Shown here: positions 5,662 to 51,477 of the stretch, one piece after another | Layout of the letters: each line of letters starts with the position of its first letter | How positions within the stretch are numbered: position 1 is the stretch's first letter | Assembly (NCBI GenBank): GCA_036172245.1 | Contig: JAYWIR010000028.1 | Coordinates: forward strand, 2,914,001 to 2,967,228 | DNA from: Raillietiella orientalis | Lineage: Eukaryota | Direction of reading: 5' to 3' | Length of the DNA: 53,228 nucleotides | Notes under the pieces: model-generated | The model's database searches: none | What the model was told of the DNA's origin: nothing | The model's input: the letters and a program-made list of their open reading frames with translations, nothing else | Made by a program: the position numbers and the translations under genes

Positions 5662-7377
5662 ATTAAACACCAGGGTGCGCCGGGGCGTTTATTCTTTTAC
5701 AGGAATCGATGCAGCCGAGGGCCCACCAATTCCAATTGTAACACTACAAAGATGGGGAGGGTTGAAGAGGTTCATCACGTCCAAGAAAGGAAAGCAAGAT
5801 GAAACAAAACTAAAGAAAAAAAAAACACAACAAATAATGAAAACAAACAAAAAAAAGATCACTTGGGGGAAGACAAGGTGTCATATTTCATGGTAGGTAA
5901 AGTCTTAGCATTTATTTAAGGATGCCGGCAAGCTCTTCCTCCTCTTTTTCAAAGTGTAGTCACTTCAAAGCTATCTGCAGGAAGCGGATGACACACAGGA
6001 CAGCTCCTCCTCAACTTCGACCTCTCTCGGCGTCGCATTTTGCTGCGACGACATTGTGCACGCGTCACATTGCTGCTATTGCAGCTGCGGGCGTCATAGC
6101 GCCCTGCACGGAGAGAAGCCTCAAAGAGTCTTTGGGATCGTCCACGGGTGCGGAAGAGACTCAAGAAACGTTCCCACAAGTCCCGGAAGAAAACGTACTG
6201 AAGGTGGAGGGAAGGTCTCCCTCTCTCCACGCCTGCCACAGTTTGGCGATGCGTTTCCCTCGTCCAGTGGTGACGGTGCACCTGGCACGTAAAAACACAG
6301 CGCAGTATCAGAAGCGCGGTTGTAGCGACTTGAGGAAAAGCAGCTCTCTATCCATGGAAACGGGGAGCACTTCCAACTCTCCGAACTGAATGGAAAAGTG
6401 TACGACACAATGTTTTAGTCCTTTCAAGGGGAATCTATGAGCGTCAGCCAGATGTCGCGTAGTTCAGCCACCGTTTGGCTTTCTGCGGACCAAGATCACG
6501 CAGGAAACCTCCCATTACGTCAGCTTACCATGTACTCTGAAACATAGGACACCGCTGCAGAGAGGATAATGGCTGCTGTTTATGCCAACACAATTAGCTC
6601 ACTACCTATCGCCTCCAATGTTCTTCCGATGTTCTTAAGCAACTCTCGGCAGCAGGTAACTTCCGATGTGGCATTGGTAAGCTGGGCCGACGTCCCAGTT
6701 TCTCCTGATGACAGTCCGGTGTGTTCGCAGGGCAGCAGAAAATACAGTGTTTGCTTTCACGAGAGCAGTAGCACACTGGAGAAAAAGGCAACAAGATGGG
6801 AGTCGGCGGTGGTGACACGCAAACAGGATTGGGACTTCATCACCGACCTCCAGCCGAGAGAGCAAACGTGCCGGGGAGCATAAATGGATGGCCTCGTTCT
6901 GTGCAACGAAGGCCATTCTTCAGGAGTTCAGTTGAACTTTTATGTGCTCCAGCGTGAGGAGTTGAAGTCCTCCGTCGCGACGAGGAATGCACAAGTCTTA
7001 ATCCCAATCGGAACCTCCCAATATTCCAGAGGTCTTTTCGAAGGAGGTCCTTTGTCTCTTTCACCATATCGGTGGGACGATACAAGCAAGGAGCATGAGT
7101 GGGAGGGCAGTGACCACAAAGGTGTTTCAAATGACGGCCCGTTCCGCCAACCAGAAGTTGCCTCATTCAAACGGGCCGAGCGCCTACTCTAACTTCTCGA
7201 GGCAGTAGGATCACGCTTCCGTAGGGGGAACGTCTCCCAGCGGCACGCCGAGGTATTTGGAGTACCCAGTCGTGGAAACTCCTAAACGGACCCAGTTCTA
7301 CTGTCCAGTCCACGTTGCACCGACCGAACACAAGTTCACTTTGTTCTGCTTAACTCCATGCCTCTTCTTCTGCTAAG
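5662..7377 (-). mobile_element. E3: degenerate LINE 3' fragment (ORF2 C-terminal part and 3'UTR)
   Basis: The minus strand gives SKYLGVPLGD (~7230-7260), KETKDLLRKDLW and HRHHWTR. The terminal AATAAA-hairpin is at 5666-5693. Confidence 0.75.
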
Positions 7378-8051
7378 TTTTTTACCTGGATAAGCCGGAG
7401 CTTTTATTTTTAAAATTCCAAATTGTTTGTTATATGGAAATCTACACTTTTTGGCATTGCTTCTTCAAAAACACATGGTTCTGTCAGTGTTTCTTAACTT
7501 GTCGTTACCGACGCGCTGGCCAGTATGGTACTTTCCGCGGGCTAAAGGGACGGGAAAAGCAAAAGAAAAAGAAAAAAAAGAAAAAACGCAGGGGGCACGA
7601 AGTTTTATGAGGTAAGGAGTAATGGGATGAAATCACTGCTCGCCGGAAGGAGTCCTCTGCATCCGGTTTCTGATGCAGGAAAGTGCCGGCTGAATTGCCC
7701 TCAACCGGGCCATCGGAATGCCTTCTCCATGGAAAGGACCGCCCAATGAATGGCATTCGCCTTATATGTACTCGCCTCGATGCATTTCACTTTTCCAGTA
7801 TTTCGCGTATGCAGCGGAAAACCGCAACACACGCGGCTGCTGGCAGGACGTTCCGCATCATGAGACGACGGAAAATATCTTCTGTGTTGTCCACAGGAAT
7901 GTTCACAATCGACGAGAGTCGATCCCATATAGACAGAAGGGCGACACACTCGATAAGCAGGTGGGGGAAGGTTTCCCTTTCCCCGCAACTTGCACAATTG
8001 GCATCCATACTCCCTACCTGGCACAGTTGGGGTTTACGCTTCCCCGTGTCC
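7378..8051 (-). mobile_element. E4: LINE 3' fragment (ORF2 Cys domain and 3'UTR)
   Basis: CASCGERETFPHLLIEC (ORF 7787-8008). The element ends AATAAAAGCTCCGGCTTATCCAGGTAAAAAA at 7408-7378. Confidence 0.8.
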
Positions 8052-9590
8052 TTCTAGGGAGCGGAGGTGGTTTGGTATTGCTCAGCGGTCTAGTTAGTGC
8101 GAAGGTTTTCGGTGGTTTTGTCTGGTATGTAGGAGCGCCGGTGTCCCATGGCAAAAATGCATGCGGACACCGCGATGGAAATCGTGGGAGAAGAGGCGAC
8201 TTGCTCTCCACCACCCATGAAAGTAAGGGCGTCCGCCCTCACGGAATCCGAGGCACTTGCCCCAACGGAATCGAAGGCAGCCGCCCCTTCGCGACCCTCT
8301 TCGACAGCGGCGAGGAGTTGGAGTGCCGTCGTTGCTGCACCATCCCCGGCTGCAGTAGCGGAGCAGACTGCCTACAAGGACAGCAGCTACAAACCGTCGC
8401 TGATCTACAAGGTAGGTAGTGTGTTCGACGAGAAAATTGCACGCTCCTTTGAAATGGAGCTGCAAAAACAGAATGTGAGAGAGGAAGACCTCGAGGGCCC
8501 TCCGTCCTTAGTGGGGGGCAGCGAGTTGAGCTGACTTGCAGAGAGGCAAGTCTGGCGGGAGAGACGAATACCATGAAGCAGGCCGTAAGGAGCCAGATGC
8601 CAGTCCCTAAGCCATCCCAACAAACGTCGGTTGAGAGCACTCCCGACGACGCTGGCGACGGCGAAGGCTGGCAGACGGTACAGCCCAGAAGAAAGCCCGG
8701 GAGTCCCGAACGAAGCGTGGGGAAAACAAAAACGCAGCGCGGAAAACCGTGCAGCGAAAAACTTCGCGCTTGTTCGGTAAAATTAGAGCGTGTGGAGGCA
8801 CTCGATGCCGCCACCGGGGGAGCAATCCCCCCTTTCGTGTCCGCCGAAGCCGCGACGGTTGATGGCGAACACTCTGGGGAAACAGAGGGAGAACCGCGCG
8901 CCGCGCTCGACGCGATCGAGGAGGCCGCCTTCCAGCAGGTGGTGGAAGAACTCGCGGCTGAACTGCAAGGCCGTGAGAAGAACTCCCTGAAAGGCTTACG
9001 AAGGCCGGCCGCGAGGAAGGGTCCGGATGCAGGTGAGGCAGAACCGGATGCCGGAAGTGCGTCCTCCTCAACGGAGGCGCCACCAAAGAAGACGGGACGC
9101 AAGTCCCAGAATCCCAGGAGGCGCATACGGATCAAGAAGGAGGAGGACGAACTGGTACCCAAGGGGGAAGCCAGGAGCGTAAGAGACGAGGGTAGGAATC
9201 TCTCATTTCTTGACACCGTGCAGCTGGCGATCCCCATGGAGGAGGAAGTACAGGTGGGTTAAACCCCCCTTCCTCTGCACGGCTCTGACGAAGACTCGGC
9301 CACCATGGAGGAGGGAGAACCGGTGCGAGGTGATCCCATTCCTCTATCCGTCCCGCCCGACCAGGTGGCGGAAGCCCCGTTGCCACTTTCCCAGGAATAA
9401 CACCTGGGCTCGCTTGTCGCCGTCGATTACGGGCGGCCTGCTGGAACGTCAACGGGCTGCGCGATGACGGCAACAGACGGGACACGGCCGCCACCCTGCG
9501 TGACTTCGACCTGGCGCTCCTGCAGGAGATCCACGTGATCACCGCGGAGAACGCCCAGTAGATCAAAAGGATCGCAGGGGGGCGGCTGAT
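8052..9590 (+). mobile_element. E5: subfamily C LINE 5' part (internally deleted ORF1 and start of the endonuclease)
   Basis: ORFs 8148-8534 and 8573-9262 align with ORF1 of E21 but lack the knuckle region. ACWNVNGLRDDGNRR...LLQEIH follows at 9400-9590. The copy is cut by the 3' end of E6. Confidence 0.85.
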
Positions 9591-9819
9591 TGTCACCCGG
9601 GTGCGCCGGGGCGTTTATTATAAACTATCCGGAAACAGGGTTCCCGGACAAAGGGGAAAACAAGAGACGAAGGGGGTGGGATCCCGACACGCAGGTCGGT
9701 ATGCCGAAAGTCCGGAACGGGAGGGAAGGGACCACAAACACACTACTATATAAAAAAAAAATAAAAGAAGAATATGGAGGACAGGAGACAGGGGTCTTTG
9801 GTAGGTCCGTTCCTTATTT

Positions 9820-12800
9820 TCAAAACCGGCGATGGATGCCGGCGATCTCTCTCCTTACGCCCTGTGGCAGATATGCCCACTGGGCAGCCGACGACATGTT
9901 TGCGCTGGCTAATCCGGTGGGCTGACGAAGGATGGCTAGCTTCTCCAACTCTCGGTGGGCCTTGTCGATGGCGCGGGTGCAACACACGGTTGCAACGACA
10001 GCACCCAATGACAGGCCGCCTGGCGTGAAGAAGCAGCGCATCAAGTACTTTGCGGTGTCCCCCTGGTGCCGGAGAGCTGAGGACAGCCTCCGACAGAGTC
10101 CTAGAAGGGCACCGCAGTCCAGGAGCAGGTGCGGGACCGTTTTTACTTCCCCGCACCGCTTACAGTTTGGGGAGACAACTCCCCCGGAAACAAGGTTCGT
10201 GCGCTGGTTGGAGTGAAAACCCCGATGCACCAGCATAATCACGTCCTGCTTCCACGAAAAAGGGAACACAGAAGTGTTCAAACACGAGGAAGGAACCACA
10301 AGTTCTTCAAGGGGCACACTCAAGTGTTCGCTCCACCGAAGGAGTCCCTTCGGAACGTGGCGAGGTGTGGCGGCGTCCGCCAGCTCGCAAGTCTTCCAGC
10401 CGCCAATAGGTCGCGTTGTTCCTGCGATGGTGCAGGCGACCTCCCATCTCGCCGGCTCGCAACTGTCATCTCTTGCCCTGAAGGCTGACAGTGCGTCGGC
10501 GAGGGGGGTGACGGCCACGCAAGTCAACTTCTCCTGGCTGTTGCACACCTCATCCACCGTGCAGTACGGGGAGAGGTGAGCGCAACGGAGTTCCAGGAGG
10601 GAAACGTCCTGGTGCTTTGCCCAGCCATGCAACGGTTCCTTCCGCCAAACTTCAAAGTTCGTTGGGCGGCAGGAGATCCATTCCTGGGCTTTCAGGAGCC
10701 GGTACAGCGGTTTCAAGGGGAAACCGAAGCTTCTCGTAACGCGCTCCGTGTGCGGCCGTAGCGACAGAAGTCCATCGCTGCCTGTGCAGCGCCGCAGAAG
10801 CAGGCGCGCGGGAACGCACCACGGAGTGGACCAAAGGTTGGCGCACAGGGCCAACATCCGAAGCTGCACCTGCAGCTCGATTCTCTCCAGCGTCAGGATG
10901 CCTAAGCCAAAATCCCGACGCGGAGCCGCCAGGTCTTTGAGGCGGATCCTGGACCTCGCAGGACCCCACAGAGCGTTCCTCAACAGGCTGTGCGCCTGGA
11001 GCTTATCCGAGTAGGAAGGCGGGCAAACAAAAAGCAGGAGGCGCAAGAGGGGGGCAACGAAAGTGTTCCATATCGTGGCCCGCTCCGGCAGGACGAACCT
11101 GCCATGGTGGAACGGGCTCAGGGCATTCGAAGCCTTCCGAAGGCAGTCCGACCACACTTCCACTGGGCTGATGTTCCCCAGCGGAACGCCCAGATATTGC
11201 ATGGAGGAAGCGGTCGGGATCCCCAGGCGGATCCAGTCGGACTGCTCCTCCCATGCCGCACCAATAGGTACGACCACGCTCTTGCTCCGGTTTACGCCCA
11301 TGCCCGCTCCCCGGCGAATCAGCTCGAGGAAATCCTCGAGACTGGACGCCGGGGTGGTCATGGGTAAGAGGAGAAGCAGGTCGTCAGCATAGGCCGCCAC
11401 GGACGGCGTTCCTGGACAAGAGCTCGGCAGGTTGGCCAGCGTCAGCCTGTACGCCCTCAGCACCAACTCAAAGAAGATGCTGAAGAGCAACGGGCTTAAG
11501 ATGCCGCCCTGCCTGATGCCCCGACGCATCGGCACGCCGTACACGTGGCAGCCGCTAAAAGAGATGGAAATGAGCGCGTGGCGCAAGCAAGCGCGCAAAT
11601 ACGCCACGAGGTGCACCGGGACACCAAGGCGTTACAGGAGCTCCAGCAGGAGATCCTGATTTACGGAATCGAACGCCTTGCGGAGATCGACCGCGACCGC
11701 CAAGGCACCCGGCGCTTCCCCAGGCCGAATGCAGCGACGCCTAGCCTCGGCAGCCGCAGATGCGGTTGCCTGGCTGTCGTGCGCCACGCAGCGTTGCAGC
11801 TCGAGCCACGTGCGCGCAAAGAACAGGTTCGCCTCCATGGACCGCCCGGGAACAGCGTAAGACTGCTCCGGACTTACCACGGATCCAGCGATCCTGCCCA
11901 GGCGCGCGACCCACAGCCTGGAGAACAACTTGACGTCCGCATTCACCAAGGTGATGGGACGCCAGTTGCTTAAATGGCGCATGTCTCCGCCTTTCGGCAA
12001 CAGACGCACCCTTGCTGAGCGAAACGAGGCCGGGACATTGCCTGTCTCTCGCATCAGCGCAGAAAGCCTCAGCACCAGGGGGATTAGTTCCGGCGCGAAG
12101 CACTGGAAGAACTTCGCAGGCAGACCATCCTCACCTGGCGCCTTGCGCTTCTTGAGGCCCGCTATGGCGGAAGACACTTCTTCCGCCGTGAACGGCAAGT
12201 CAAGAGTGGCGCGTTCCTCCTCGTCGACCGCCGGGAAATCCGCCGGCAGAAGCAGCTCCGAGAGACTGCGTTCCGTCGGCTCCCGAGCGTACAACGAGAA
12301 GTAATAGCGCTTTAGGAGGCGGCGAACTTCTGCCGCGCCTGAGCACTCCAGGCCCTGGTCGTCGAGCAGACAAGCTGCTCCTGACTGTCAGACCTGGCGC
12401 TCGGCCTTGGCCTTGTACTCCGCAAGGTACCGGACGTCCGGGCATCGGAAGAATTGGCGGGCCTGCAGAAACTCTCTGCAGTTAACCACGCCTTCCCCGA
12501 AGCCACGGGGAAGCAGGCGCAAGGGGAACCGGCTGCAGAACTCGCGGACCGATCTTTTCAGATCATTCCAGTCCACGAGCTCTCGAGCGGCAAAGGTCCG
12601 GAGATGCTAGCGGAGGTGCTCCGCAGCCACCGGATTTCTCAACCAGTCGGCCGGCAACCTCCAGACGTGCGTCGGAGGGCCCTTGCCAGGCGGGAGTAGC
12701 TCAAACTCCAACCTGTAGTGGTCGGAAAGCTCGGACGGCACAGGACCTCTTCGACCCACCCGACAATGCAGGTGATCGTCCAGGAACACATGGTCCGGCA

Positions 12801-13383
12801 AAGCACGCATCCCGGGATCGTCGGCCAGCAAATTCGAGGCGTGCACCGACGCGCACACCTCGTTCACCAGCCGTTTCTCCCGCCGACGGTGAGACTCCTC
12901 GGATAGCGCGTGGACGTTGAAGTCCCCGGCTACGAGGTGAGCCACGTGGGGGCCGGAGTTGCTGAGCCAGCGGTCGCGCAGTCTCTCGAAAAACTCCAGT
13001 TTCTCGGTGTGACGCGCGGAGCCGCTCGGCGCGTACACGTTCGTGACGACAAGGTTGATCGATTCGGACCACTTGAGAACAAGTTGGCCCACACGACCTT
13101 CCTCGTCGAAACAAACGCTCCGCACCGCTCCCGCCACCCTGCCCCGGACAAGGAATGCGACTCAGCAGGTATTCTGGGAGCCTGACCTCCAATGGAGAGT
13201 CCCGCCTGCGCGAACTTGCAGATCGGCCGCTTGCTGCTCGGAGAGTGAGTGAATCTCCTGCAGCAGGGCCAGATCGAAGTCGCGCAAGACGTTGGCAACC
13301 AATTGCCTCTTCTCGTTGTCCTACAGCCCGTTGACGTTCCAACAGGCCACTCGGACGCGACGGGAAGAAGCGAGACCGCGCAT
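9820..13383 (-). pseudogene. ORF2 of E6: APE endonuclease, reverse transcriptase and Cys domain, broken by stops and frameshifts
   Basis: NVYAP, GDFN, SDH (ORF 12607-13137); KAPGEDG, WRPITL, DLRKAFDSV (ORF 11632-12294); GIRQG, YADD, YLGV, CKRC...H...C (ORF 9820-11616). Confidence 0.92.
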
Positions 13384-13388
13384 TGCTG

Positions 13389-14748
13389 CTACGGACACGG
13401 AGGTGCGTTCCTCGCCCCGTCCGGCGAGGCATCAGCCGGGAGCACGGCGGATGAGGTAGCGCAAGCGCTTCCTGTCCCTGCCGCGCCGCTCGCGGCCGGC
13501 TCGGTGGAGTCGGGGACCATTGCCTCGGGCTCCGAGGAGCATCGGGAACCGTTCCCGGCATCAGGCTCTTGCCTGGCAAGTTTTGGCTTGCGCGCAGCCC
13601 TGGCCTTGACTGGGGCTTGGCGAGCCTTAGCGCTGCCCTCGGACTCGACCTCGGAGTCCGAATTGCGCGTGCGTGGCGGGCGTTTCGCATGCCTGTTTTT
13701 TTTTTGCTGGCAGCCCGGAGCTGGTCCAGCACGCTTAGAGGGTGCCTTCGTCGCCGATCCCCCTTTCGGGGTCACGGCTTCGGCGGCTCCCCTCTCGCCG
13801 CGGGTGTTTGCGGCGGCGCGCGCGGTGGCAGCAGAGGCTTTTCCTTGCGCCTTTCTGGGCGCGCGGGGTTGCCTCTTCACCCCGCCTACCTTTTTGATCG
13901 GGAAGTGGGAAGGATCGCGCGGTTAGCGCTCCTTCTTTCCCCCGACGAAGGTCCAGCCATCCTCGCCGCCTTCCTGTTTGCCTCGGTTAGGCGCGAGGGC
14001 TTCCAGGGTCCTTCGCATCCTTCCCAAGGCCTCGGACACGGCGATGGAGGCCAGTGTCTCCTTCGCCACGTCTGCCTTCTGCACCTCCTTACCGGAAGGT
14101 GCGGGCAGAGTGGCGGGATTCTCGGAAGTCGCGCGAGGCTTTTCGGCCTTTGCTGGCGTTCGGCCCGCCGTGGCCGGCTTGCCTGTCGCGAGCAAAGGGG
14201 CGCGCGACCCCTTTTTCGACGCTTCGGTGGTCTTCCCGGGCGTGCCACCGCTATTTCGCTCCGGAGCGAGAGCGGACGGAAGCGGCTGTTTTGCAGCCTG
14301 CCCGATGTTATCGGCGGGCTGGGTCGCTCGGGGCTTTACTGAGGCAGCTTGGAGAAGCTCCTTGTCCTTCGCGCGGGTTTTTGTAAAGCATTGCTCCGAA
14401 AATCGCCCGCGCAAGCGGACTTTTCACTTTTCCGCTGCGAATCCTCGTTCGCGCCGGATTTCTACCCCGACGACGGGGCGGATGGAGTCGGCGCGGACGG
14501 CGATGTTGCGGAAAGGTTTCTCGCCCTCCTCTTTCGTTTTAGCTCGGCGCACTCGTTAATCGAGTGGCCAAGCAGCTTACAGTATCGGCAACTGCGTGTT
14601 GGGCACTTCCGCGGACGATGGCCCTCCTTCCCGCAGTTGCCGCAAGCTGGGGTTTGCCCGGCAAACCGGAGATATACGACGACGTCACCGAGGACGATCT
14701 GCGAAGGCATGAGCCTCCGGTCGTCCATGGTGACGCGTGCCGTCGCGA
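13389..14748 (-). pseudogene. Partial ORF1 of E6 (two zinc knuckles and low-complexity C-terminus)
   Basis: ORFs 14462-14728, 13923-14414 and 13389-13880 are homologous to ORF1 of E10. Confidence 0.8.
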
Positions 14749-16603
14749 TTCACACCCGGATGTTTCGGGGCATTTATTTCTTTGAAATAAAAATACATGA
14801 AATGTCGCGTGGCGAACTCGGAGGTTCACCACTGCAAAACAGCTTGCTGGTTACCGGCTCCATGCCGGAGAGGTCCTTCCGATGCGCGGGGATGGGAAAT
14901 AAAGAAAAACAAAAAGAAACAAAAAGCTCAAATGTGGGGGAGAACAAATGTTGTAGGGGTGGGAGGGCGGGAAAGGGATCACGGTGCGCGTGGAAAGGTC
15001 CTCTAGATCCTAATCAGGATCCGCACAAGCTGAGTCCTTTCAGCACCCAAGTGGCGCCACTTGCAGACACTGCGCGCGTAAAGGCGAGTCGAGTGTAAGG
15101 CGTTGCCGGTTGGCTGACGCCTTCTTCTGGTGGCGTTCCAAGCCGCCACTATTCCTCTGATGCAGCAGAGAACTGCTACACTAGCGGGCGGGGACAAGGC
15201 GTCACTACAGAAGAGGCGCCTGAAAACGTCCTTTGGGCAGCATCCGCGCAAGTGCAGGATCCCCGCGAGACGATCCCACAAAAAGCGGAGGGCGCTACAC
15301 TCAAGGAGAAGGTAAGGGAATGTTTCTTTTTCCCCACACCGGTCACAATTGGGATCCACAGCCCCCCGGGTTGTGTGGTGCAGGCGTGCTTTGAATAATA
15401 ATCCCCAGAGTACCACAAGCAACGCTACATTCCGCCATTTCAATGGGAGAGAGGCACTGTTCCAGGACGCTAGTGGACACTTGATCTCCTCCGGAGATAG
15501 TCCGAGTAGCTCGCCCCAGCGTCGAATTCCGTTTGGCGGGACACTCGGCGTCGCAGCGTCAGCTAGCTGCCGAGATGTCCACGCCTTTATCGATTGTGTC
15601 CTGCCGCCTATAGTGCAGGACACGGTCCATTTCCCCTGCTCGCTACTGTCGCTGGCATTCACAAGGAAGGGCAGCACTGGGGCGAGGGGGGTTATCAAGG
15701 CCCACAGAAGCTTGTCGTGGGACTGCACGATCTTCTGCAGCGTCCAGCGGGCGTGCCTTTTCATACAAGTGTTCCTTGTGCCCGCCGGAACGTGGATCTT
15801 TTCCCAGGTGGAGACTGATTCGTGCAACCAAGCGGAGTAGTTTCCTAGGAGGCAGGAGATCCAGGCGTTCTCCCGGACCGCAACAAAGATGCGTCGCAGC
15901 ATAGAACCACAGTATGCTCTTCTGCAGACGCGCGCAGACAGAAACGACAAAAGTCCGCCGATTCCACAGGCTCGTTGGGCCAGGAGGCGTGCTGGAACGC
16001 ACCAAGGCGTGTCCCACAATTCGGCCGCGAGGGCGAGAGTCCTGCATCTAAGTGGCAGTTCCATGCGCTCCAGCGTAAGTACGCCAAGTCCACCGTCCTT
16101 ACGTGGAGCGCACAAGTCTTTGAGCCTCACACGGGACCTCCCTTTGCCCCAAAAAACTGTCCTCAGGAGGCCCGCTGCTCGTTTCCGAATAAAATAAGGG
16201 GCGGGGCAAACAAAAAGTAGGGGGAGAAGCAGGGGAGCCGCAAACGCGTTCCACATCGCGGCCCGTTCCTGCAAGAAGAACTTGCCTTCTTGGAACGGAC
16301 CGATCGCCAACGCTGCCTTTTGGAGACGGTCGGACCAGGCATCTGCTGCGCAGAAGTCCCCCAACGGAGTGCCAAGGTACTTGATGCATCTGCCCGTGGG
16401 GATCCCCAAGCGGATCTAGTCCGACCGTCCAGCCCACGCCGAACCGACAAAGACCATCGACGACTTCGCCCTGTTCACCTACAGGCCCGTCCCGCGGCGC
16501 AGCAACTCGAAGAATTCCTCGAGCGCACACGCCGGGGTGGAACCGGGAAGCAGCAGCAGAAGATCGTCTGCATAGGCCGACCCGAAAGGCGTGCCGGCGA
16601 GTC
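14749..16603 (-). mobile_element. E7: subfamily D LINE 3' fragment (RT from YADD to the end, plus 3'UTR)
   Basis: SAYADD at ~16565-16580. ORF 15003-16409 has KYLGTPLG and CDRCGEKETFPYLLLEC. The element ends AATAAATGCCCCGAAACATCCGGGTGTG. Confidence 0.9.
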
Positions 16604-20600: not shown

Positions 20601-21221
20601 AAGGATGAGAAGCAGAGAGAGTGGAAGACGGGCCAGCTAACTGATGCTGCGACCCCGAGTAAGCCTCCTAATAGACTTCTGCGCTGGGGAGCGCTGCTGG
20701 ATGTTCCGATTGAACATCTGAAGTGGCCCCCGATTCTTATGAACACTTCCATCCTCCCCCTAAAATGGCAAGAGTCGGCATTCCTGTTGCAGCACTGGGG
20801 ACTCCCCTGCAACGCCCGTCGACACCACTGGACCTGGGGAGCGGTGGATCCCAATTGTGTAAGGTGCGGGGAACGGGAGTCCCTCCCCCACCTCCTAGTG
20901 GATTGTGTTGCCCTTCGGCCCCTTTGGTTCCGCTTTGCCGCGGCCATCGGTATCCCTTGCGGCAACCCCAGGGACGCACTAAAAGCCTTCTTCGTTGCCG
21001 ACGCCCTGCGGCCAGCGTCCTCGATAGCAGCCTTGTGCTGCCTTCGTGGGATCGTCGCCGCCTGGAGCACGGCGACGGGAGGACCTAGCGATATGGACGC
21101 CATCCAGTGCGCCCCCCAATTCCTGAGGAGGGCGTCGCGATGGCCCCACCTAGATGTTCATAACAAACAAGAGGTTGTCAGCATCCTGAGAGGGATGATG
21201 CGGCCCCAGCAGCATCAGTAA
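17638..21221 (+). pseudogene. ORF2 of E8 (endonuclease, RT, Cys domain) with a frameshift and stops
   Basis: WNVNG, LQE, NVYAP, GDFN, IDH, SDH; DLRKAFESV, IRQGDSLSP, YADD; CVRCGERESLPHLLVDC. Confidence 0.92.
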
Positions 21222-21306
21222 TCCCTTCTTGTTCCCTCCCACCCTTTGTTTCTTTTTGTTTAGTTTTTTTGTTTTTCCCCTTTCCCCTGCTGCCTTCGTG
21301 GACCGT

Positions 21307-40530: not shown

Positions 40531-40533
40531 GCA

Positions 40534-41283
40534 GATCTCCGCAGATCAAGCAACGGACATCGAGCGTATTTCGGGTGGACGGCTGCTGTGGCGTTTCGGT
40601 ACCGCGAAATCAAGCGGTGTCGCCTTCCTCCTTCGGCCAGTCATGGAGACCGCAATAAAGGACGTTCGGTTCGATGACGCAGTTCGCGTCGGTCAGCAGA
40701 CTCTCAGCTGTTCCGACTCTATCGACCTGGTCGTCACCAGCCTATACGCTCCTAGCGGAAACTCCGCATTGAGGGCGAAGGCAAGAAAGGAGTTCTACCT
40801 TGTCCTCAGACGCAATGCTGACCGATGCAGGAGTTCGCAAAGCGCACCCGATCGCAGGTGATTTCAACCTGCGCTTGCTTTCAGGTGCGCCGGAGACACT
40901 GAACGACCGCGTCAACGAGTTGTGCGCAGAAATGAACACGCGCAACTTGTTGGCCGGGGAAACGGCCATGGAAAGCAGCATCGATCACGTGTACCTTGAT
41001 CAGCAACTATGCTCTCGGGTGGGCAGGCGAAGCAAGGTACCATCCGAGCTGTCGGACCATGGTCGGATGATGTTCGAAGTGCGTCCGCACGACAAGGACC
41101 CCCCCTCGTCAACGTGGCGTCTGCCAGGGGACTGGCTGAAGTTTCCCGACGCGGCGGAACACATCCGCGCGTTTATTGGGAGCTTCAGGATGCAGACACT
41201 TCAGGACTGGGACCGCTTCAAGCGATCGGTCCAGGAGTTCTGCGACCATTTCCCCCTGCATCGCCTACCTGCGGGATTTGGGG
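40534..41283 (+). mobile_element. E15: internal endonuclease fragment of an A-like LINE
   Basis: ISADQATDIERISGGRLLW, LYAP, GDFN, IDH, SDH, ending at LPAGFG. Confidence 0.85.
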
Positions 41284-43385
41284 TTTCCAGCCGGGTACGC
41301 TCTGAGCGTTTATTGAAAAAACACAACAATAACGTAATACTAGGCCCCACTAACGGCCACACAACACCAGACCTGCCGGGGCGCCGGGACGCAGCCCGGC
41401 GTGACGTTCCTCGGCTGTGGAGAGGGATAGGGATCAAAACAAAAAGAAAAATAAAGATAAGGAAGACAAAAAAAGAGTTTGGAGGAAGAGGAAGGGATCA
41501 CAATGCACTGGGAGGAGGGCCCATCCTTCGCAGGATGCCCTCCAGGTCCGTCTTCGTGCTTCCCAGATGGGGCCATCTCGCAGCTCTCCGCATGAAGCAG
41601 ACCGCATACGGGATGACGTCCCTCGCGTTGGCATCTACTTCTGCGTGGTGAATGTCGCTCCAGGCCGCCCCGATACCCTGGATGCAGCAGAGGGCTGCGA
41701 GGGCTGCGGCTGGCTGCAGGTCGTACCGCACGAAAAGGGGCCGAAGAACGTCTCTGGGCGCGCTGCCCATTGGGAGCCCGAGGGTCGTCCCGAACCGTTC
41801 TCACAGGGTTCGCAGGGCAGCACAGTCAACAAGTAGGTGGGGGAGCGATTCCCGCTCCCCACACCTGGCACACTTAGGCCTTACACTTCCCCGCGTCCAG
41901 TGGAAGTGGCGCGCGTTGCAGGGTAGACCCCAGTGCAACAGCAGAAGCGCCGACTCTTGAGACTTCAGGGGGAGAAGCCTGGATCCGATTAATATTAAAG
42001 GCGACTACTGGTCATCCGTCAGGATACCGAGCAGCTCGCCCCATCGACGAAGTCCACGAGGGAGGGCACTCGGGGTTGTAACATCTGCCAGTTCTCCCAT
42101 GGTCCAACCGCTCATCTTCTTTTCCTTGCCTGCGATTCGGCAGGAGACTTGCCACTTTGGCTTGCGGCCGCTGCTTAAAGCCCTGCGTAGGAAGAACAGG
42201 GTCGAAGCTAGAGGGGTAGTCTCCGCCCACGTTCTCCTGGCGTGACACTCCAGAGTAGTCCGCAGTGTGCAGCAGGCGTTGGGGACGAATCGCATTTGGT
42301 TCCATTCCGGGGAAGTCTGGAGGTTCAGCTTGGCCCACGTCGCAACTGATTCCTCCAGCCAGGCGAAAAAGTTGGCGGGGCTGCATAGCGTCCAGCCGTT
42401 GTCTTTCACCAGGGCTTCCATGCGCCCAAGTAGAAGGCCGCATCTTCTGACCTTCCTGCCAGTGCACAGAAGGTACGACGGGAGTCCTTGCATCCTGGAC
42501 ACACAGCTGGCGAGGATTCGGTCCAGAACGCACCAAGATGTGCACCATGACTTTGCTGCGATGGCGAGGGTGTGCCATCGCAGCTGTATGTGCAGGCGCT
42601 TTAGCGTCAGGAGGCAGAGACCGCCGTCCCGACGAGGAGCGCATAAGTCATCTAGAGGCACACGTGGCCTCCCTCTGCCCCAGAAGGCGATGCGGAGTAG
42701 GTCCTTTGTCCTCTTTATAATGTCACGGGGGACATGACAAATTAAAAGCAGGGGGCAAAGGATGGAAGCCGTGAACGCGTTCCACACCGCGGTCCCTTCC
42801 GGCAGAAGGTACTTGCCTTCCAGGAACGGGCCGATTGCCAACTCTACCTTCTGGAGACGACCTGAACAGGCTGCTGCGAGGCAGAAGTCCCCCAACGGGA
42901 TACCCAAGTACTTCAGGTAACTGGCCGCGGGGATCCCCAAGCGGATCCAGTCAGGCCGTTCGACCCACGTCGCACCCACCGGTACGACCGACGACTTCGC
43001 CTTGTTTACCCGAAGTACAGACCCACGACTTAGCAGGTCGAAGAAATCCTCGACTGCGGCTGCCGGGGCTGACAAGGGCAACATGAGCAGAAGGTCGTCG
43101 GCGTATGCTGCTACAGCGGGCGTGCCGGAGCACGAGCTGGGCTGGGCAGCCAAAGTCACCCTGTACGCTCTCAGCACCAACTCAAAGTAGGTGCTAAAGA
43201 GCAGGGGACGAAGGCTATCGCCCTGCCGTATGCACCTCGGCACCAGCACGCCGTACACCTGTTGCTAGATGAACTGATTTCAACGATGAGGTTGCGGCAG
43301 CAGCACCGCAGGAAGGAGAGAAGAAAGGGTGCGAAGCCCATGCGACCCAGGGGCTCCAAAAGAAGCTCCTGGTCAACGCAGTCGA
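41284..43385 (-). mobile_element. E16: subfamily C LINE 3' part
   Basis: DCVDQELL, IRQGDSL and YADD (ORF 42005-43258). The element ends AATAAACGCTCAGAGCGTACCCGGCTGGAAA. Confidence 0.9.
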
Positions 43386-43413
43386 CCGCCTTCTGCGCTC
43401 TAAGGCGGACGTG
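43379..43413 (+). promoter_or_regulatory. Putative internal Pol II core promoter of E17 (Inr-like CAGT and DPE-like GGACGTG)
   Basis: The A of CAGT is at 43380 and GGACGTG starts at 43407 (+28). The motif recurs at the 5' ends of E9 (21464), E10 (28436, minus), E21 (48103) and E13 (GGATGTG, 35869). Confidence 0.6.
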
Positions 43414-44516: not shown

Positions 44517-44519
44517 TAT

Positions 44520-45010
44520 GTCAGAGTAGTCTTTAGTGCTGCAACAGGAGAGCCGAATCCTGCCATTTCAAGGAGAGGGAGGAGGTGTTCATTAGTACCG
44601 GGGGCCACTTCAAACGTTCAATGGGAGCGTCAAGCAGCGCGCCTCAACGTAGAAGTATATGGGGAGGCGTACTCGGGGTCGCAGCGTCTGTTAACTGGCC
44701 CGTCTTCCACTCTCTTATCTTCTTCTGCTTTCCGGAGATTGTCACTGTAACCTATCACTTCGCCGCAACATCGCTTTTTGGATCTTACATCAGGGAGGGC
44801 AACGCAGCAGCAAGGTAGGTTCTTCCTGACCACGCTCCTTTCTTTGGATCTTCCAATATCTCGCGGAGCGTGCAACTTCTGTAACCCCGAAACAGGAACC
44901 TTCGTTCCTGTTGGGAGCGTTGGATGCCGAACTGTCCCCGCGTTCGAACGGTTTCCTGCAATCAGGGACTACCGATCAAAGGGCGACAGGTGACAAATCC
45001 ATGGATTTTC
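44520..45010 (-). mobile_element. E18: inverted internal ORF2 fragment of subfamily A with no terminus
   Basis: The reverse complement matches E8 ~20325-20805, e.g. CAGGAACGAAGGTTCCTGTTT and GAGCGTGGTCAGGAAGAACC. Confidence 0.8.
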
Positions 45011-45019
45011 TGTGTTAGC

Positions 45020-45736
45020 GCGAAAGATTAGGAGGGCGGTTGTACTGGCGATGCGGCGCCCGCAACACTTGTGGGGTCGCGTTCTTCCTAGAGCCAGCCA
45101 TTAACGCGGCCGTAAAGGACGTGCGCTTTGGGGACGACGGACGGATCGGCCAACTGATTCTCAGATGGTCCGATTCGATCGACCTCATCGTCACCAATGT
45201 GTACGCTCCTAGCGGTAAACAGGGATACCAGCAGCGCAACGCGTTACTGGAAACCTTAAAGCGCGTATGGCTGGTGGACGCGGACGTGCGAAAGGCGCAT
45301 CTGATAGCAGGGGATTTCAATGTCCGTCTGCTCTCAGATCAGCCCGGAGCACAGGGGAACGCGATCAACGAGTTGTGCGCCGCCATGCGCGCGCGCAACT
45401 TGTTGACAGAAATAAGCGGGATGGTCAACAGCGTGGACCACGTCTTCCTCGACCAAGACCTGTACACACGGGTAGGAAAACGAGGGACACTTGGATCGAC
45501 GCTGTCGGACCATTCCCGGTCAATATTCGAGATGCGCCCGCGCGACAAGGGACCGCCATCCAGGGATTGGCGTATGCCAGGGGACTGGACGCGCCTGTCA
45601 GGAGCGAAAGAACATCTTCGCGAATTCCTGCGAGGCGTCACCCTCCAGAGTGTCGCGGATTGGGACCTATTTAAGGACTCGGTCCGGGAGTTCTGCGAAC
45701 AGTTCCCAGTGCAACGTCTGCCCCGGGGATTCGGCG
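45020..45736 (+). mobile_element. E19: internal endonuclease fragment, C-like
   Basis: The ORF from 45040 has NVYAP, GDFN, VDH and SDH, ending at LPRGFG. Confidence 0.85.
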
Positions 45737-48100
45737 TTGCCACCCGGGTACGCCCGGGGCGTTTATTTATAAAAACTCTACAATTGCGGTACCAGGCCCC
45801 GCTCACGGCCTTATGCACGGGACCTACCGGGACGCCGGGACGCAGCCCGGCGTGGCACTCCCCGGCAGCGAAAGGGGATGGGGAAAAACAAAAATAAAAA
45901 CAAAAAAGCAAACAAACAAGTGAGGTTGGGGGGCAGGGAAGGGATCACTGTTCGCTGAGAGGAGGGCCCATCCGTTGAAGGAAGCCCTCGAGGTCCATCC
46001 GTAGATTCCCCAGTTGGGGCCATCCAGCAGCTCTCCGCAAGAAGCGTTGGGCATATGGGATGACATCCCTCGCGTGTTGACCCACTCCTTCCTTGTTGGT
46101 GTCGCTCCATGCCGCCACGATGCCTCGGACGCAGCACAAGGCTGCAAGGGCTGCGGCTGGCTGCAGGGCGTCCTTCACGAAGAGGGGCCGAAGAACGTCT
46201 CTAGGGGAACTGCCCGTTGGGAGACCGAGGATCGTCCCAAACCGTTCCCAAAGGGGACGAAGGGCAGCACAGTCCACAATAAGGTAAGAGAGCGATTCCC
46301 GCTCTCCGCACCTGACACACGCAGGATCCACAACTCCTCATGTCCAGTGAGAGCGGCGTGCGTTGCAGGGTAAACCCCAATGCAACAACAGCAACGCCGA
46401 CTCTTTCCACTTAAGGGGCAGGATCCTGGATTCCTGAAGAAGCGGGGGCCACTTCAGCACATCCATAGGGATGGCCAGCAGCTCGCCCCATCTTCTTAGT
46501 CCTCGCGGCTGGACGCTCGGTGTCGTGGCGTCGGCCAGTTCTCCTGTTGTCCAGCCGCTGATCAACTTCTCGCGTCCCTCGATGCAGCAGGAGACTTGCC
46601 ACCTTGGCGTACGGCTGCTGCGAAGTGCCCTCTTCAGGAAGGGCAGCGCCGTAGCTAGGCAGGTCGTCTCTGCCCACGTGCATCTTGCTGGACTCTCCAG
46701 GAGATTCCGCAGCGTGCAGCGGGCGTAGGGGCTGCATCGGAGACGATTCCACGTTTCGTGGCTCCTCTGGTTAACCGCTGCCCACGTTCCAATATTCTCC
46801 TCCAGCCAGGCGGGGGAGTTGGCGGGGCAGCAAACCATCCAGCTGTTCTCCTTGGCCAATGTTGCCATGCGCCCGAGCAGTAGGCCGCATCTTCGCATCT
46901 TCCGGCCACGGCTCAGAAGAAAAGACGCGAGTCCATCGCACCGGGACACACGGCTGGCCAGGAGGCGGGCCGGAGTGCACCAAGGGGTGCTCCACATCTT
47001 CGCTGCGATGGCGAGGGTTCGCCACCGCAGCTGCTTCTCCACGCGCTCCAGCGTCAGGAGGCCAAGACCGCCGTCCCGACGCGGAGCGCACAAGTCCTTC
47101 AGAGGGACTCGGGGCCTCCCCTTGCCCCAAAGGGCGATACGGAGGAGGTCCTTTGTCCTCTTCTTCGATTCCACGGTGGGGGGGCAAACAAAAAGCAAGG
47201 GGCGGAGGATGGGGGCCGCGAAGGCGTTCCAAACCGCGGCCCGTTCCGGCAAGTGAAACTTGCCTTCCAGGAACGGGCCGATCGCCGTCTCGACTTTTTG
47301 GAGGCAGCTGGACCACGCTTCCGCAGGGGAGTAGTCCCCCAACGGCACACCAAGGTACTTGAAGCACCTCGCCGTGGGGATCCCCAGACGGACCCAGTCC
47401 TGCTGCAATGCCCACGCCGCACCTATTGGCACAACCGACGACTTCGCCCTGTTAACCTGCAGTCCGGTCCCGCGGCTGAGCTGATCGAAGAAGTCTCCGA
47501 CCGCCTTTGCCGGGGTGGACATTGGTAACAAGAGCAGAAGATCGTCGGCGTACGCTGCTACGGCGGGCGTGCCGGGGCACGAGCTCGGCAACGGGGCCAG
47601 AGTCACCCTGTACGATCTCAGCACAAACTCAAAGTAGGTGCTGAAGTGCAGAAAGCTGAGACTATCTTCCTGCCTTATGTCCCGCCGCAACTGCACGCAA
47701 TGCACCTTGTGACCGCTGAAAGAGACGGTATTTATTGCATTCCGCAAGCAAGAGCACAGGTAGGAAATCAGGGAGGGTGGGAAGCCCATGCGACTTAGGA
47801 GCTCCAAGAGGAGGTCCTGGTCTACATATTCGAACGCCTTGTGGAGGTCGACTGCCAGCGCTAGGGCCCCCTTTCTTGCCCGTGGTTTCCTTGCTAGCCC
47901 GGCTGGCGGCCCCAATGTGGGGTTGCCGACTTTCCCTATCCCTTTCTTCTCTCTTCTCTGCAGGTGCACCCATGTGCTTGCGAAGAAGAGGTTGGCATCC
48001 ATACTTCGACCGGGAACAGCATAAGTCTGCTCCTGGCTAATTACGGATTCTGCCACCTGCCTTAGACGCGAAGCCCATAGCCCTGCTATTAACTTGGCGT
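45737..48100 (-). mobile_element. E20: subfamily C LINE 3' part (RT from AKLI onward, Cys domain, 3'UTR)
   Basis: DLHKAFE, YADD, KYLGVPLG, CVRCGERES. The element ends AATAAACGCCCCGGGCGTACCCGGGTGGCAA. Confidence 0.92.
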
Positions 48101-48302
48101 GCGGACGTGTTTTTGTAGCGCTCCTCCGTGCCTGGTGTAAAGCGGTTGATTTCGATTGTGTTTGTGTGTGAAGCATCTGCGGTGTCCAATGGCAGAAATG
48201 CCTGAGGACACCGCGACTGATATAGGAGGGGGAGAGGCTTGCTCCTCTCCCCAACCCACAAAGGTGGGGGCAACTGCCCCCACGGAGGCGACGGCAGCCG
48301 CA

Positions 48303-48470
48303 CCCCTGGAAAAGGGGGCAACCGCCGCCTCGGAAGTGAGGGCAAAGGCACCCTTGAAAAAGGGAACAAAAGCCCCGCTGGAACAGGGTGCAACCGCCTT
48401 CTTGAAAAAGGGGACAACCGCAACCCTGCAAAAGGGCGCAACCGCCTCCTTGAAAAAGGGGGCACCTGCA
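48303..48470 (+). repeat. Seven degenerate 24-bp tandem units in ORF1 of E21
   Basis: PLEKGATA, ASEVRAKA, PLKKGTKA, PLEQGATA, FLKKGTTA, TLQKGATA, SLKKGAPA. Confidence 0.85.
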
Positions 48471-49898
48471 CCCTCGAAAGCGTCTTCGGCATCGCCGAAG
48501 ACCTGGAGTTCACTGGCTGCAGCCCCATCTCCTGCAGCCCTCTCCGAGCAGAAAGCCTACCTGGAACAGGGATGCAAGCCGTCCTTGATATACAAGGTAG
48601 GCAATCTGTTTATCGGGAATACCGCTTGCAACTTCGAAAGGGAGTTGCAGCGGTTGAATGTAAAAGAGGAAGTCCAGGAAGGTCTTTCCGTGTTGAGTGG
48701 TGGTCAACGGGTGGAGGTGACTTGCAGAAATGCAAGCCTTGCTAGACACCTCCTAAATACGCCAATCACACTAGAAGGACGAAAGGTTTTCCCATTAACG
48801 GAGGATCGCTCCGTGGTGACGCACCTCACGGGAGTCACCCTCCGCATGTCAAAAGCCGACGTGCAAAGGGAACTCGGAAAATATGGAACGGTTCACGCGC
48901 TATGGAAAAAGCCCAACGTCTTCCAGAGTTACGGAAGGCTGTTTAGTGGCATGGCTGTTGCGCGTGTAACCGTCCACGAAAACGGTGGGCTACCCCACAA
49001 ACTAGACGTCGGCAACAAGACAGTCGACGTCTGGTACGTGGGCAAGCCCAAGTACTGTGGACACTGTGATGCCACAGGGCATCTGAAAAAGCGGTGCCCC
49101 CACATCCAGTGTTTCCACTGTGGAGAGAAGGGCCACCTCCGCAAAGTGTGCCCGAAACGCGAACCCCCGGCTCCCGCTGCCTTGAAAAAGGCCAAAGGGA
49201 AACGCGCGGGGGCTACGGAAAAGTTTGCGAAGGCACCCGCGAGACAGAACCCACAGCCGGAGCCCGAGCCCGTGCAGCAAACGTTGGTCGTGGAATCTAC
49301 CAACGACGCTGAAAAGAGCGAAGGCTGGCAGAAGGCGAAGCAGAAAGCGAAGAAAACAAAGAAAACCGAAGGGTCGACAGCGGAACCCGCGACGTCTCCT
49401 TTAAATAGGAGACAACGCCGCGCGTACATCCGCGAATGTTCGGTCGCTTTGGAGCGTGTGGGGGTACCCGGAACCGCCACCGGGAGAGATATCCCCCGCG
49501 TAGACGCCGACGATAACGCGATCACGGAAGGCGAACCCTCTGTGCAAACAGAGGTTGAACCGCGCGACGCGCTCGCCTCGATCGACGAGGCCGCCTTCCA
49601 GCAGGCGGCGGAAGAGCTCGCGGCCGAACTCGCCGACCGTGCGAACGGCGCGCAAAAGAGCTTGCGAAGGCCGGCCGCGACCAGGGCACCTCCGACAGGT
49701 GACCACGACCCGGATGCCGGAAGTGCGTCCTCCTCCACGGAGGCGCCTCCGAAGAAGACTGGACGGGAGTCCAAGAATTCCAAGAGGCGCATCCTGACGA
49801 GGAGCGAGGCGGACGCACCGGCAGCCGAGGGGGAAGCCGGCAGCGTGGGAACGGAGGGAGGAATTTTCCCACCCTCCGCCACCGAGCAGCCGACCACC

Positions 49899-50135
49899 CC
49901 ATGGAGGAGGGGGAGCAGGTAGGGCATTGCCTCCACCTTCCACCGGTGGAGCCTGCAGAAAAGATGGTCATGGAAGAGGGGGAGAAGACAGCTGAGAACC
50001 GCTCCCCTCTGCCGTCCAACGCAGCCGAGGAATCGGCCCCCATGGAAGAGGGGAAGCAGGTGCGTGAAGCATGCTCCCTTCAACCGTTGCGGTCCGCCGA
50101 GGAATCGCCCCCCATGGAGGTGGGAGAACCGCTGG
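49899..50135 (+). repeat. About four degenerate ~70-bp units (MEEGE...) at the ORF1 C-terminus of E21
   Basis: CATGGARG recurs at ~49900, 49969, 50041 and 50114. E5 has only two units (~9235 and ~9303). Confidence 0.7.
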
Positions 50136-50399
50136 GCGGTGCCCCCATGCCTCCATCCGTCCCACCCGACCAGGTGGCGGGAGCCCAATTGCCACTTTCC
50201 TGAAAATAACACCTGGGCTCGCCTGTCGCCGTCGATTACGCGTGGCCTGCTGGAACGTGAACGGGCTGCGCGACGACGGCAACAGACGGGAAACGGCCGC
50301 CACCCTGCGTGACTTCGACCTGGCACTCCTGCAGGAGATCCACGTGATCACCGCGGAGAACGCCCAGGAGATCGAAAGGATCGCAGGGGGACGGTTGAT

Positions 50400-51477
50400 T
50401 GTCACCCGGGTGCGCCGGGGCGTTTATTATAAACTATCCGGGAACAGGGTTCCCGGACAAAGGGGAAAACAAGAGACCAAAGGGGTGGGATCCCCGACAC
50501 GCAGGTCGGCATGCCGAAAGTCCGGAACGGGAGGGAAGGGACCACAAACACACTACTATATAAAAAAATAAAAGAAAAATGTGGAGGGCAGGGGACAGGG
50601 GTCTTTGGTAAATCCGTTCCTTCCTTTTAAAACCGGCGATGGATGCCGGCGATCTCTCTCCTTACGCCCTGCGGCAGATGGGCCCATTGGGCAGCCGACG
50701 ACATGTTTGCGCTGGCTAATCCGGTGGGCTGACGAAGGATGGCCAGCTTCTCCAACTCTCGGTGGGCCTTGTCGATGGCGCGGGTGCAACACACGGTTGC
50801 AACGACAGCACCCAATGACAGGCCGCCTGGCGTGAAGAAGCGGCGCATCAACTCCCTCGCGGTGTCCCCCTGGTGCAGGAGAGCTGAGGCCAGCCTCCGC
50901 CAGAGTCCTAGAAGGGCACTGCAGTCCAGGAGCAGGTGCGGGAGCGTTTCCACTTCCCCGCACCGCTTACAGTTTGGGGAGACGACTCCCCCGGAAACAA
51001 GGTTCGTGCGCTGGTTGGAGTGAAAACCCCAATGCACCAGCATAATCACATCCTGCTTCCACGGAAGGGGGAACACAGAAGTGTTCAGACACGAGGGAGG
51101 AACCACAAGTTCTTCAAGGGGCACACTCAAGTGTTCGCTCCACCGAAGGAGTCCCTTCGGAACGTGGCGGGGCGTGGCGGCGTCCGCCAGCTCGCAAGTC
51201 TTCCAGCCGCCAATAGGTCGCGTTGTTCCTGCGATGGTGCAGGCGACCTCCCATCTCGCCGGTTCGCAACTGTCATCTCTTGCCCTGAGGGCTGACAGCG
51301 CGTCTTCGAGGGGGATGACGGGCAGGCGGGTCCACTTCTCCTGGCTGTTGCACACCTCATCCACCGTGCAGTACGGGGAGAGGTGAGCGCAACGGAGTTC
51401 CAGGAGGGAAACATCCTGGTGCTTTGCCCAGCCATGCAACGGTTCCTGCCGCCAGGCTTCAAAGTTCGTTGGGCTAC
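50400..51477 (-). mobile_element. E22: 5'-truncated (1078 bp) subfamily B LINE inserted antisense into the endonuclease of E21 with a 13-bp TSD
   Basis: GGGGACGGTTGAT occurs at 50387-50399 and 51478-51490. The sequence is closely similar to E6 9591-10666. Confidence 0.95.

Follow-up and report, generated by a model that had tools for sequence, protein, structure and literature searches.

Zepp and Zepp-like (ZeppL) elements are long interspersed nuclear elements (LINEs) of the L1 type which, according to the passages devoted to them in PMC3446292 and PMC8226300, target their own copies and build nested, GC-rich clusters of tens of kb, the putative centromeres of green algae such as Coccomyxa and Chlamydomonas. 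Further accounts of Zepp-type clusters are contained in parts of 10.1101/2022.06.16.496473 and 10.1101/2025.03.28.645958, and Zepp arrays were summarised in a passage of PMC8226300 as tandem and composed mostly of 3' ends. The locus described here is a stretch of 53,228 nt from Raillietiella orientalis (GenBank assembly GCA_036172245.1, contig JAYWIR010000028.1, positions 2,914,001 to 2,967,228 of the forward strand), which was analyzed at its full length and is referred to below as the window. From position 5662 to its end, the window is occupied by a cluster built by one L1-clade LINE family, with an open reading frame 1 (ORF1) carrying a CCHC knuckle and an ORF2 of ~1203 amino acids (aa), whose copies lie within one another mostly in antisense orientation and, repeatedly, at the same short regions of ORF2.

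Like the clusters described for Zepp and ZeppL in the relevant passages of PMC3446292, this cluster is self-targeted and nested, and its GC content (0.54-0.64, from 5662 to the window end) exceeds that of the flank at 1-5661 (0.42-0.49). In contrast to the tandem 3' ends of the Zepp summary (PMC8226300), the strands alternate here (15 of 19 relations are opposite), six 5' termini are kept and the tails comprise 2-6 A. The likeness to Zepp is one of description and not of sequence comparison, and the nearest database protein is 60% identical. In the passages on Zepp-type clusters in PMC3446292, PMC8226300, 10.1101/2022.06.16.496473 and 10.1101/2025.03.28.645958, neither orientation nor internal hot sites are mentioned. 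A second comparison is offered by the human genome, in which hotspots for the nesting of transposable elements (TEs) within TEs, with an orientation preference, were described by Levy, Schwartz and Ast 2010, and a single sense hotspot for Alu within Alu was attributed to asymmetric endonuclease sites (PMC2836564). Both cases involve nesting at specific positions of the target element, with orientation as part of the preference. As far as the hotspot passages of PMC2836564 describe them, however, the human sites are A/T-rich targets of the L1 endonuclease that receive other families or short interspersed nuclear elements (SINEs), whereas here an autonomous LINE enters coding motifs within its own family, in antisense orientation and serially. 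Full-text literature searches, including PMC10088271, returned no description of antisense, site-recurrent self-insertion by a LINE, a point on which the original Zepp papers could bear. Self-nested, GC-rich clusters of L1-type elements are already known, and the antisense pattern with recurrent sites, observed in one window, is the new point.

Results

Orientation of the nested copies

Twenty copies or fragments of the family were mapped from 5662 to the window end with the proteins of copy A as a ruler (tblastn), together with blastn self-alignment, nhmmer and the junction sequences. Along the forward strand, with square brackets around inserts that are closed by a target-site duplication (TSD) and after which the host resumes, the order is K1-, K2-, P0+, C-, D-, E+, F+, [A-], F+, [G+], F+, H-, P1+, J-, P2+, M-, P3+, N-, P4+, O-, P5+, [Q-], P6+. 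Opposite strands were found in 15 of the 19 element-to-element relations, while three relations are sense (K2 with K1, D with C, and G with F) and one is tandem (E with F). The last 12 pieces, from H- to P6+, alternate strictly. The original prediction, made from the sequence of the same stretch, had described this alternation, the cluster itself and an antisense bias, all of which were borne out by the maps; its numbers were revised, from 22 elements to 20 and from 16 antisense, four sense and one tandem relation among 21 to the counts given above.

When the E-F and P3-N relations were excluded, 17 host-insert relations remained, with a ratio of antisense to sense of 14:3 (two-sided binomial test, p=0.013); when C in P0 and Q in P5 were counted once, the ratio was 13:3 (16 relations, p=0.021). 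Among the 10 relations in which a 3' terminus adjoins an internal host position, the ratio was 7:3 (p=0.34). Three inserts are closed by TSDs, two antisense (A, 12 bp; Q, 13 bp) and one sense (G, 13 bp), instead of the four previously proposed, of which two had been taken as antisense. The antisense bias is real yet moderately significant, and it comes from one locus in which the pattern was noticed for its striking look.

Recurrent insertion regions in ORF2

Eight of the 14 antisense events fall within three short regions of ORF2, here called R1, R2 and R3, in which all events are antisense (8/8); the host-insert relations located elsewhere divide into 6 antisense and 3 sense. Strand-coupled targeting, as earlier proposed, is supported in a narrower form, as an antisense excess in these regions. 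Region R1 comprises ORF2 aa 72-80, just past the LQE motif. Here, C in P0 (9594/9595) and Q in P5 (~50400) share one position, with the break after GG.CGG.TGA(T), and J entered P1 ~28 nt and N entered the P4 element ~18 nt upstream of it. Region R2 lies at ORF2 aa ~312, about a dozen codons past the endonuclease C/S-D-H motif, and M in P2 (41282/41283) and O in P4 (45735/45736) hit the same nucleotide in it, after GGR TTY GGS G. Region R3 (ORF2 aa 499-504) is located within the RPIT-VN-D-KL reverse-transcriptase motif, where the insertions of H into F and of the P5/P6 element into O lie ~6 nt or less apart. As judged by the count of close pairs, the 17 sites are clustered relative to a uniform model (p=0.0004-0.005).

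At each of the 12 3' termini, the last base of the primer strand is a purine, and at 10 of them the last two bases are purines. Simple target composition was rejected as a source of the orientation, given that RTT and AAY occur at 996:1027 (49:51) and the coding strand is not favoured. A longer motif, GCGGYN?GA, is biased 40:12 toward the coding strand; it was derived post hoc from few sites and was not relied on.

Site-specific LINEs with an apurinic/apyrimidinic endonuclease (APE), such as the R1 element, TRAS/SART and Tx1, insert repeatedly, and always in the same orientation, at a single nucleotide position within a conserved target that is present in many copies. The present cluster resembles this in part, with two pairs that share a nucleotide and 8/17 events, all antisense, in three regions. 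Those elements target a host repeat or gene, whereas the present family targets its own ORF2, at several sites of one locus, and 9/17 events lie elsewhere.

Independence of the shared junctions

The two inserts at R2, M and O, differ by 26% (synonymous divergence, dS, 0.68; ratio of nonsynonymous to synonymous divergence, omega, 0.35), and their hosts, P2 and P4, by 34% (dS 1.24, omega 0.25); the four pieces contain 0-3 stops per 231-700 codons. Low omega and few stops indicate that the divergence between M and O and between P2 and P4 arose in active lineages, not after genomic duplication. Up to the R2 junction, P2 is nearest to E (0.88) and P4 to P6 (0.82), while P2 and P4 are just 0.65 identical to each other, and no shared tail was carried. 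These sequence comparisons show that M into P2 and O into P4 were independent insertions into hosts of different subfamilies. A segmental duplication as the origin of the shared P2-M and P4-O junction was ruled out by the divergence and by the differing nearest copies.

At R1, C shares 95% identity with Q over its 3' 1.07 kb, and the hosts P0 and P5 match each other at 92-95% over their last ~300 nt. The identity of P0 to P5 drops to 70-80% further upstream and is discordant between ORF1 (~0.75) and ORF2 (0.94). Q stops at aa 923 with a perfect 13-bp TSD and C extends into ORF1; since Q is closed and truncated and C is longer, neither can have arisen by mere copying of the other. The R1 pair may nevertheless go back to gene conversion or to mobilisation of a composite. 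A 3'-transduced tail is a possible but unsupported cause of the P0-P5 identity beside the junction, as the identity rises gradually, with no sharp joint. In a direct comparison of P0 (8100-9594) with P5 (48104-50399), the first 80 ORF2 codons were 92-95% identical and ORF1 ~70-80%, and a 115-nt indel was located between the ORFs; the discordance reflects either exchange of an ORF1 module or gene conversion.

Sequence overlaps at the 5' junctions

The 5' junctions carry short overlaps, the clearest of which is the 14 nt shared at the M-P3 junction (TCGACCGCCTTCTG). These 14 nt extend the homology of M to O and H, and are at the same time the 5' terminal 14-mer of the F/P3 lineage. With 2-3 mismatches, the F/P3 14-mer (TCGACCGCCTTGTC) also matches C, G and O, in the antisense of their reverse transcriptase (RT)-coding region (aa ~580). 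The 14-mer sites are located at 43382-43395, 21439-21452, 47830-47843, 11669-11682 and 29658-29671, and P3 joins M exactly there. The 5' end at M-P3 could have been sealed by annealing through microhomology, or the F/P3 leader could have begun, in an old 5' transduction, as a piece of a host copy that held its ancestor in antisense orientation.

Structure of the cluster

The cluster starts at 5662 with the 3' end of the first (-) copy, and from there to the window end nearly each base aligns elsewhere within the window by self-alignment. K1 (5662-7384, -) forms the cluster edge; it is degraded (8 stops in 171 codons) and runs from the 3' terminus to ORF2 aa ~711. It is followed on the same strand by K2 (7385-8040, -), which extends from the 3' terminus to ORF2 aa ~1070. 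P0 (8041-9594, +) has a full 5' end, ORF1 and ORF2 to aa 79, where it is interrupted at R1 by C (9595-14751, -), which extends from its 3' terminus to ORF1 aa ~209. D (14752-16599, -), on the same strand as C, reaches from the 3' terminus to ORF2 aa 674. E (16600-21439, +) is 5'-truncated in ORF1 and continues to its 3' terminus with an AAAA tail, by which it is joined head-to-tail, with no TSD, to the full 5' end of F (21436-21440), a joint of the kind expected if the reverse transcriptase had jumped end to end from one template to the next.

F is found in three parts, namely a full 5' end into ORF1 (21440-22648, +), which ends with the left TSD of A (22637-22648), a second part from the end of ORF1 to ORF2 aa 173 (28443-29492, +), and a third with ORF2 aa 170-504 (31861-32852, +), which is interrupted at R3 by H. 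The two inserts that separate these parts are A (22649-28442, -), a full-length, closed antisense insert with the 12-bp TSD CGTTGTCGTTTA, and G (29493-31860, +), a closed sense insert with the 13-bp TSD TTTCAACGTTCGC that is 5'-truncated at aa 536 and has its 3' terminus with an A6 tail. H (32853-35858, -) runs from the 3' terminus to ORF2 aa ~280 and is 90% identical to P6 on the opposite strand.

P1 (35859-37749, +) has the 5' end, ORF1 and ORF2 to aa 72, and is interrupted in R1 by J (37750-40533, -; 3' terminus to ORF2 aa ~399). P2 (40534-41282, +; ORF2 aa ~62-312) begins in R1 and is interrupted at R2 by M. P1 and P2 were considered as the halves of one host closed around J, and this was rejected, since their 27-nt overlap is identical at 21/27 positions and the halves differ in their nearness to E. 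M (41283-43395, -) extends from the 3' terminus to ORF2 aa ~580, and its last 14 nt (43382-43395) are those shared with the 5' end of P3 (43382-44520, +), which continues from a full 5' end into ORF1, is 87% identical to F and ends at a non-canonical junction. At this junction (44520/44521), P3 inside ORF1 meets N at ORF2 aa 1061 (-), with no terminus on either side. Because two internal positions are joined, the P3-N junction (44517-44522) is a deletion or rearrangement scar and not an insertion. N (44521-45021, -) is an internal fragment (ORF2 aa 916-1061) without a 3' terminus.

P4 (45022-45735, +; ORF2 aa ~73-312) begins in R1 and is interrupted at R2 by O (45736-48103, -), which runs from the 3' terminus to ORF2 aa ~499, in R3. 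P5 (48104-50399, +), the left half of the P5/P6 element, has a full 5' end, an intact 588-aa ORF1 with the CCHC knuckle and ORF2 to aa 79. Q (50400-51477, -), 5'-truncated at aa 923, is a closed antisense insert at R1 with the 13-bp TSD GGGGACGGTTGAT (50387-50399 and 51478-51490), after which P6 (51478-53228, +; ORF2 aa 76-659) forms the right half of the host and continues past the window.

An exhaustive search for duplicated 11-mers beside the 12 termini found no closures beyond those of A, G and Q. The ends visible in the window are nearly all left ends, that is, 3' termini of (-) copies and 5' termini of (+) copies. The window would thus represent the left, descending side of a nest in which most inserts are still unclosed; any closing halves would lie beyond 53228. 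The (+) strand has more A than T nearly throughout 5662-53228. This trend arises from the A-rich 5' parts that make up the (+) pieces and from the 3' parts that make up the (-) pieces, whose own coding strand is rich in T, and is a by-product of only left halves being in the window. The (-) frame at 28135-29319 was considered as an ORF1 and rejected, being an antisense open frame of a (+) copy instead. This and two other long (-) frames (17066-17944 and 37153-37740) are antisense to the ORF1/ORF2 boundary of (+) copies, as is typical of GC-rich sequence, and they are conserved because the underlying DNA is conserved. Short contigs of the DNA sequencing run X1, compared with 1-20000, contained related copies and a joint like that of P1 and J, and did not resolve the long-range structure.

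The element family and the flank

Copy A is complete, with a length of 5.8 kb; its short leader is followed by ORF1 (~660 aa), ORF2 (1203 aa, interrupted by two stops) and a 3' untranslated region of ~210 nt. Pfam searches detected PF03372 (Exo_endo_phos, the APE endonuclease; E=8e-15) at 25419-26429 (-) and PF00078 (RVT_1; up to E=4e-18) across seven ORFs. The endonuclease and then the reverse transcriptase are colinear within the single 1203-aa frame of ORF2, the arrangement of the L1 clade. For the zinc-binding region expected past the reverse transcriptase, the match to PF13966 (zf-RVT) was weak (20.3-20.4 bits, under the cut-off of 27.5). PF00098 (zf-CCHC) was found with 22.2 bits (cut-off 20.8) in the 588-aa ORF1 (48156-49922), upstream of ORF2. 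A CCHC knuckle in ORF1 is a trait of plant-type L1. The N-terminal part of ORF1 holds tandem repeats of 24 and 48 nt that vary among copies (48266-48473 and 8233-8287).

The TSDs of 12, 13 and 13 bp (A, G and Q) and the variable 5' truncation, seen in E, G and Q, are those of a LINE. A conserved 3' box is common to all copies (AATAAACGCCCCGG-N4-6-CCGGGTG, then 2-6 A), so that the long poly(A) of the L1 clade is replaced by tails of just 2-6 A. A 3'-end profile (nhmmer) detected exactly 12 termini in the window, 10 on the (-) and 2 on the (+) strand. The 5' terminal motif GCGGACGTG was found in six copies, (+) P0, F, P1, P3 and P5 and (-) A. A 3' hairpin was rejected, as the possible 4-bp stem in the box has compensatory changes at 0/4 pairs and no covariation. 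C, A and Q also contain a second inverted repeat, CCGGGAAC...GTTCCCGG, at a distance of ~40 nt upstream of their 3' box (9640-9700, 22690-22750 and 50440-50510).

In the protein search, matches other than the nearest protein were at most 40% identical. A metagenome scan with the ORF2 alignment gave zero confirmed relatives, no relative is encoded (tblastn) at any of the 82 loci retrieved with the 3' box pattern, and a protein atlas contained generic RT clusters only. The flank (1-5661) is non-repeat, with no internal repeats and no Pfam, Rfam or tRNA matches; Rfam and tRNA scans gave zero matches, and no relatives of the 262-aa ORF of the flank were found. Within the flank, 3336-4669 is deeply covered by contigs of run X1, with many differences, and matched nothing in Pfam or the protein database; either a further repeat or a conserved gene may be located there.

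Discussion

The map with its termini, the TSDs of A, G and Q, the recurrence of junctions and the fact that the R2 events were independent are read directly from the window. We infer from them that (+) copies were inserted into (-) hosts where a (-) copy meets a (+) 5' end, that the right halves are located past the window end, and for what reasons these sites and the newest copy are preferred. The reading favoured here, with a probability of roughly one half, is target-primed insertion that prefers a few coding-strand sites of resident copies and gives the alternating series in a mostly unclosed nest. New copies would enter resident copies by target-primed reverse transcription, the nick being made preferentially on the coding strand of the resident copy at R1, R2 and R3. 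A nick on the coding strand would fix the antisense orientation of the new copy relative to its host, and with the newest copy becoming the next host, serial insertion into the latest copy would make the strands alternate. The 5' ends would be sealed through short homology, such as the 14 nt shared at M-P3. Much of the apparent antisense bias would then be explained by the recurrent antisense sites.

Several observations weigh against this reading. Seven of the 14 antisense relations are defined by 5' junctions alone, and their 3' junctions and TSDs would fall past the window. So deep a chain needs a preference for the newest copy, which the data leave unexplained, and stop-codon density shows no clear age gradient. 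The hot regions were defined after the data had been seen, no motif common to R1, R2 and R3 was found beyond purine-purine before the nick, and no insertion hit any of the three regions in C and A, two long (-) copies that contain all of them. C in P0 may not be independent of Q in P5/P6, host and insert both being ~5% diverged; when C into P0 is dropped and element ends are excluded, the clustering falls to p=0.02-0.12. Finally, the evidence comes from one locus in an assembly that has not been validated, and although a joint like P1-J is present in run X1, that run may be from the source sample.

A stronger version of targeted insertion, which is possible but distinctly tentative, is that of a self-homing LINE. 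Its lineages would recognise conserved motifs on the coding strand of the family's ORF2, at sites past LQE, past C/SDH and in RT motif 1, and land antisense in a resident, preferably recent, copy. The alternating nested arrays built in this way could serve as centromere-like clusters and have an inbuilt source of double-stranded RNA (dsRNA). A nest of this kind would be heritable, and the 5' 14-mer of F/P3 looks like antisense RT sequence carried from the nest.

Transcription-coupled targeting is unlikely, though it fares best among the competing explanations. The endonuclease or ribonucleoprotein (RNP) would nick the displaced non-template (coding) strand of a transcribed copy, and the hot regions would be the exposed strand, which would account both for the antisense orientation and for a chain-like nest following the newest active copy. 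Most of the hit hosts have a full 5' end and long open frames, and in copy A the highest coding-strand GC skew (+0.13) falls in the 300-nt bin that holds R1. The skew is weak overall (about 0 to +0.1), however, and identical nucleotide positions in different subfamilies suit the recognition of sequence or structure better than a diffuse exposed strand. The original prediction had named host transcription, or pairing of RNA or complementary DNA with the related target, as causes of strand coupling; the present data show neither to be the cause, the GC skew being weak and extended complementarity not established.

Chance, combined with selection of a striking pattern, would make the alternation and the shared sites a fluke of one locus with unoriented insertions. 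The ratios of 7:3 at the directly defined 3' junctions and of 2:1 among the TSD-closed inserts agree with this, as do the conservative clustering value and the picking of the finding for its unusual look. On the other side stand 14 antisense relations among 17, twelve strictly alternating pieces, and two independent insertions at one nucleotide in the same orientation. We consider chance slightly less probable than coupling to transcription.

Head-to-head co-insertion, in which two DNA ends at one target would prime different RNAs, is improbable. It would resemble twin priming with two templates. In the twin priming (5' inversion) of L1, a 3' part is joined to a 5' part on the opposite strand, with a short overlap at the joint. 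Co-insertion would join a (-) 3' part to a (+) copy reaching its 5' end, and half of the antisense relations would become automatic. Four junctions pair a truncated (-) copy with an exact (+) 5' terminus (K2-P0, H-P1, M-P3 and O-P5), each with a short overlap, as in L1 twin priming. Classical twin priming from one RNA was excluded at O-P5, because its arms should not overlap, whereas O (aa 499 to the end) and P6 overlap at aa 501-659 and are just 0.70 identical. Moreover, the closed inserts A, G and Q are all plain monomers with TSDs, no closed dimer was seen in the window, and D-E-F misfits, as the 3' terminus of E meets F instead of host sequence.

Least probable is a retention bias, whereby sense and antisense nestings would arise equally and sense direct repeats would be deleted by recombination: rearrangement is present at the non-canonical P3-N junction and the P0-P5 identity is discordant between the ORFs, but most host-insert pairs are just 55-75% identical, a divergence at which homologous recombination no longer deletes direct repeats efficiently, three sense relations persist, and recurrent sites are not predicted, so that the preferential antisense retention proposed earlier is disfavoured, if by inference only.

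With target-primed insertion as the favoured reading, the geometry of the locus also bears on its transcripts. Two arms of 995 nt (34717-35711 and 52234-53228) are 90% complementary. Either strand carries both sense and antisense segments, so that the idea of a small-RNA source, contained in the original prediction, follows logically from the geometry as a predicted property of the locus. In several green algae, clusters of self-nesting LINEs have been proposed as the centromeric DNA. If the pattern holds only here, the locus is a LINE nest of the usual kind, in which the orientations happened to fall in this way by luck. If it is genome-wide, independent antisense hits on the same nucleotide of the family's own coding sequence would constitute a testable targeting rule that explains the alternating architecture, and read-through transcripts would be predicted to fold into long dsRNA, bearing on silencing and centromere identity.

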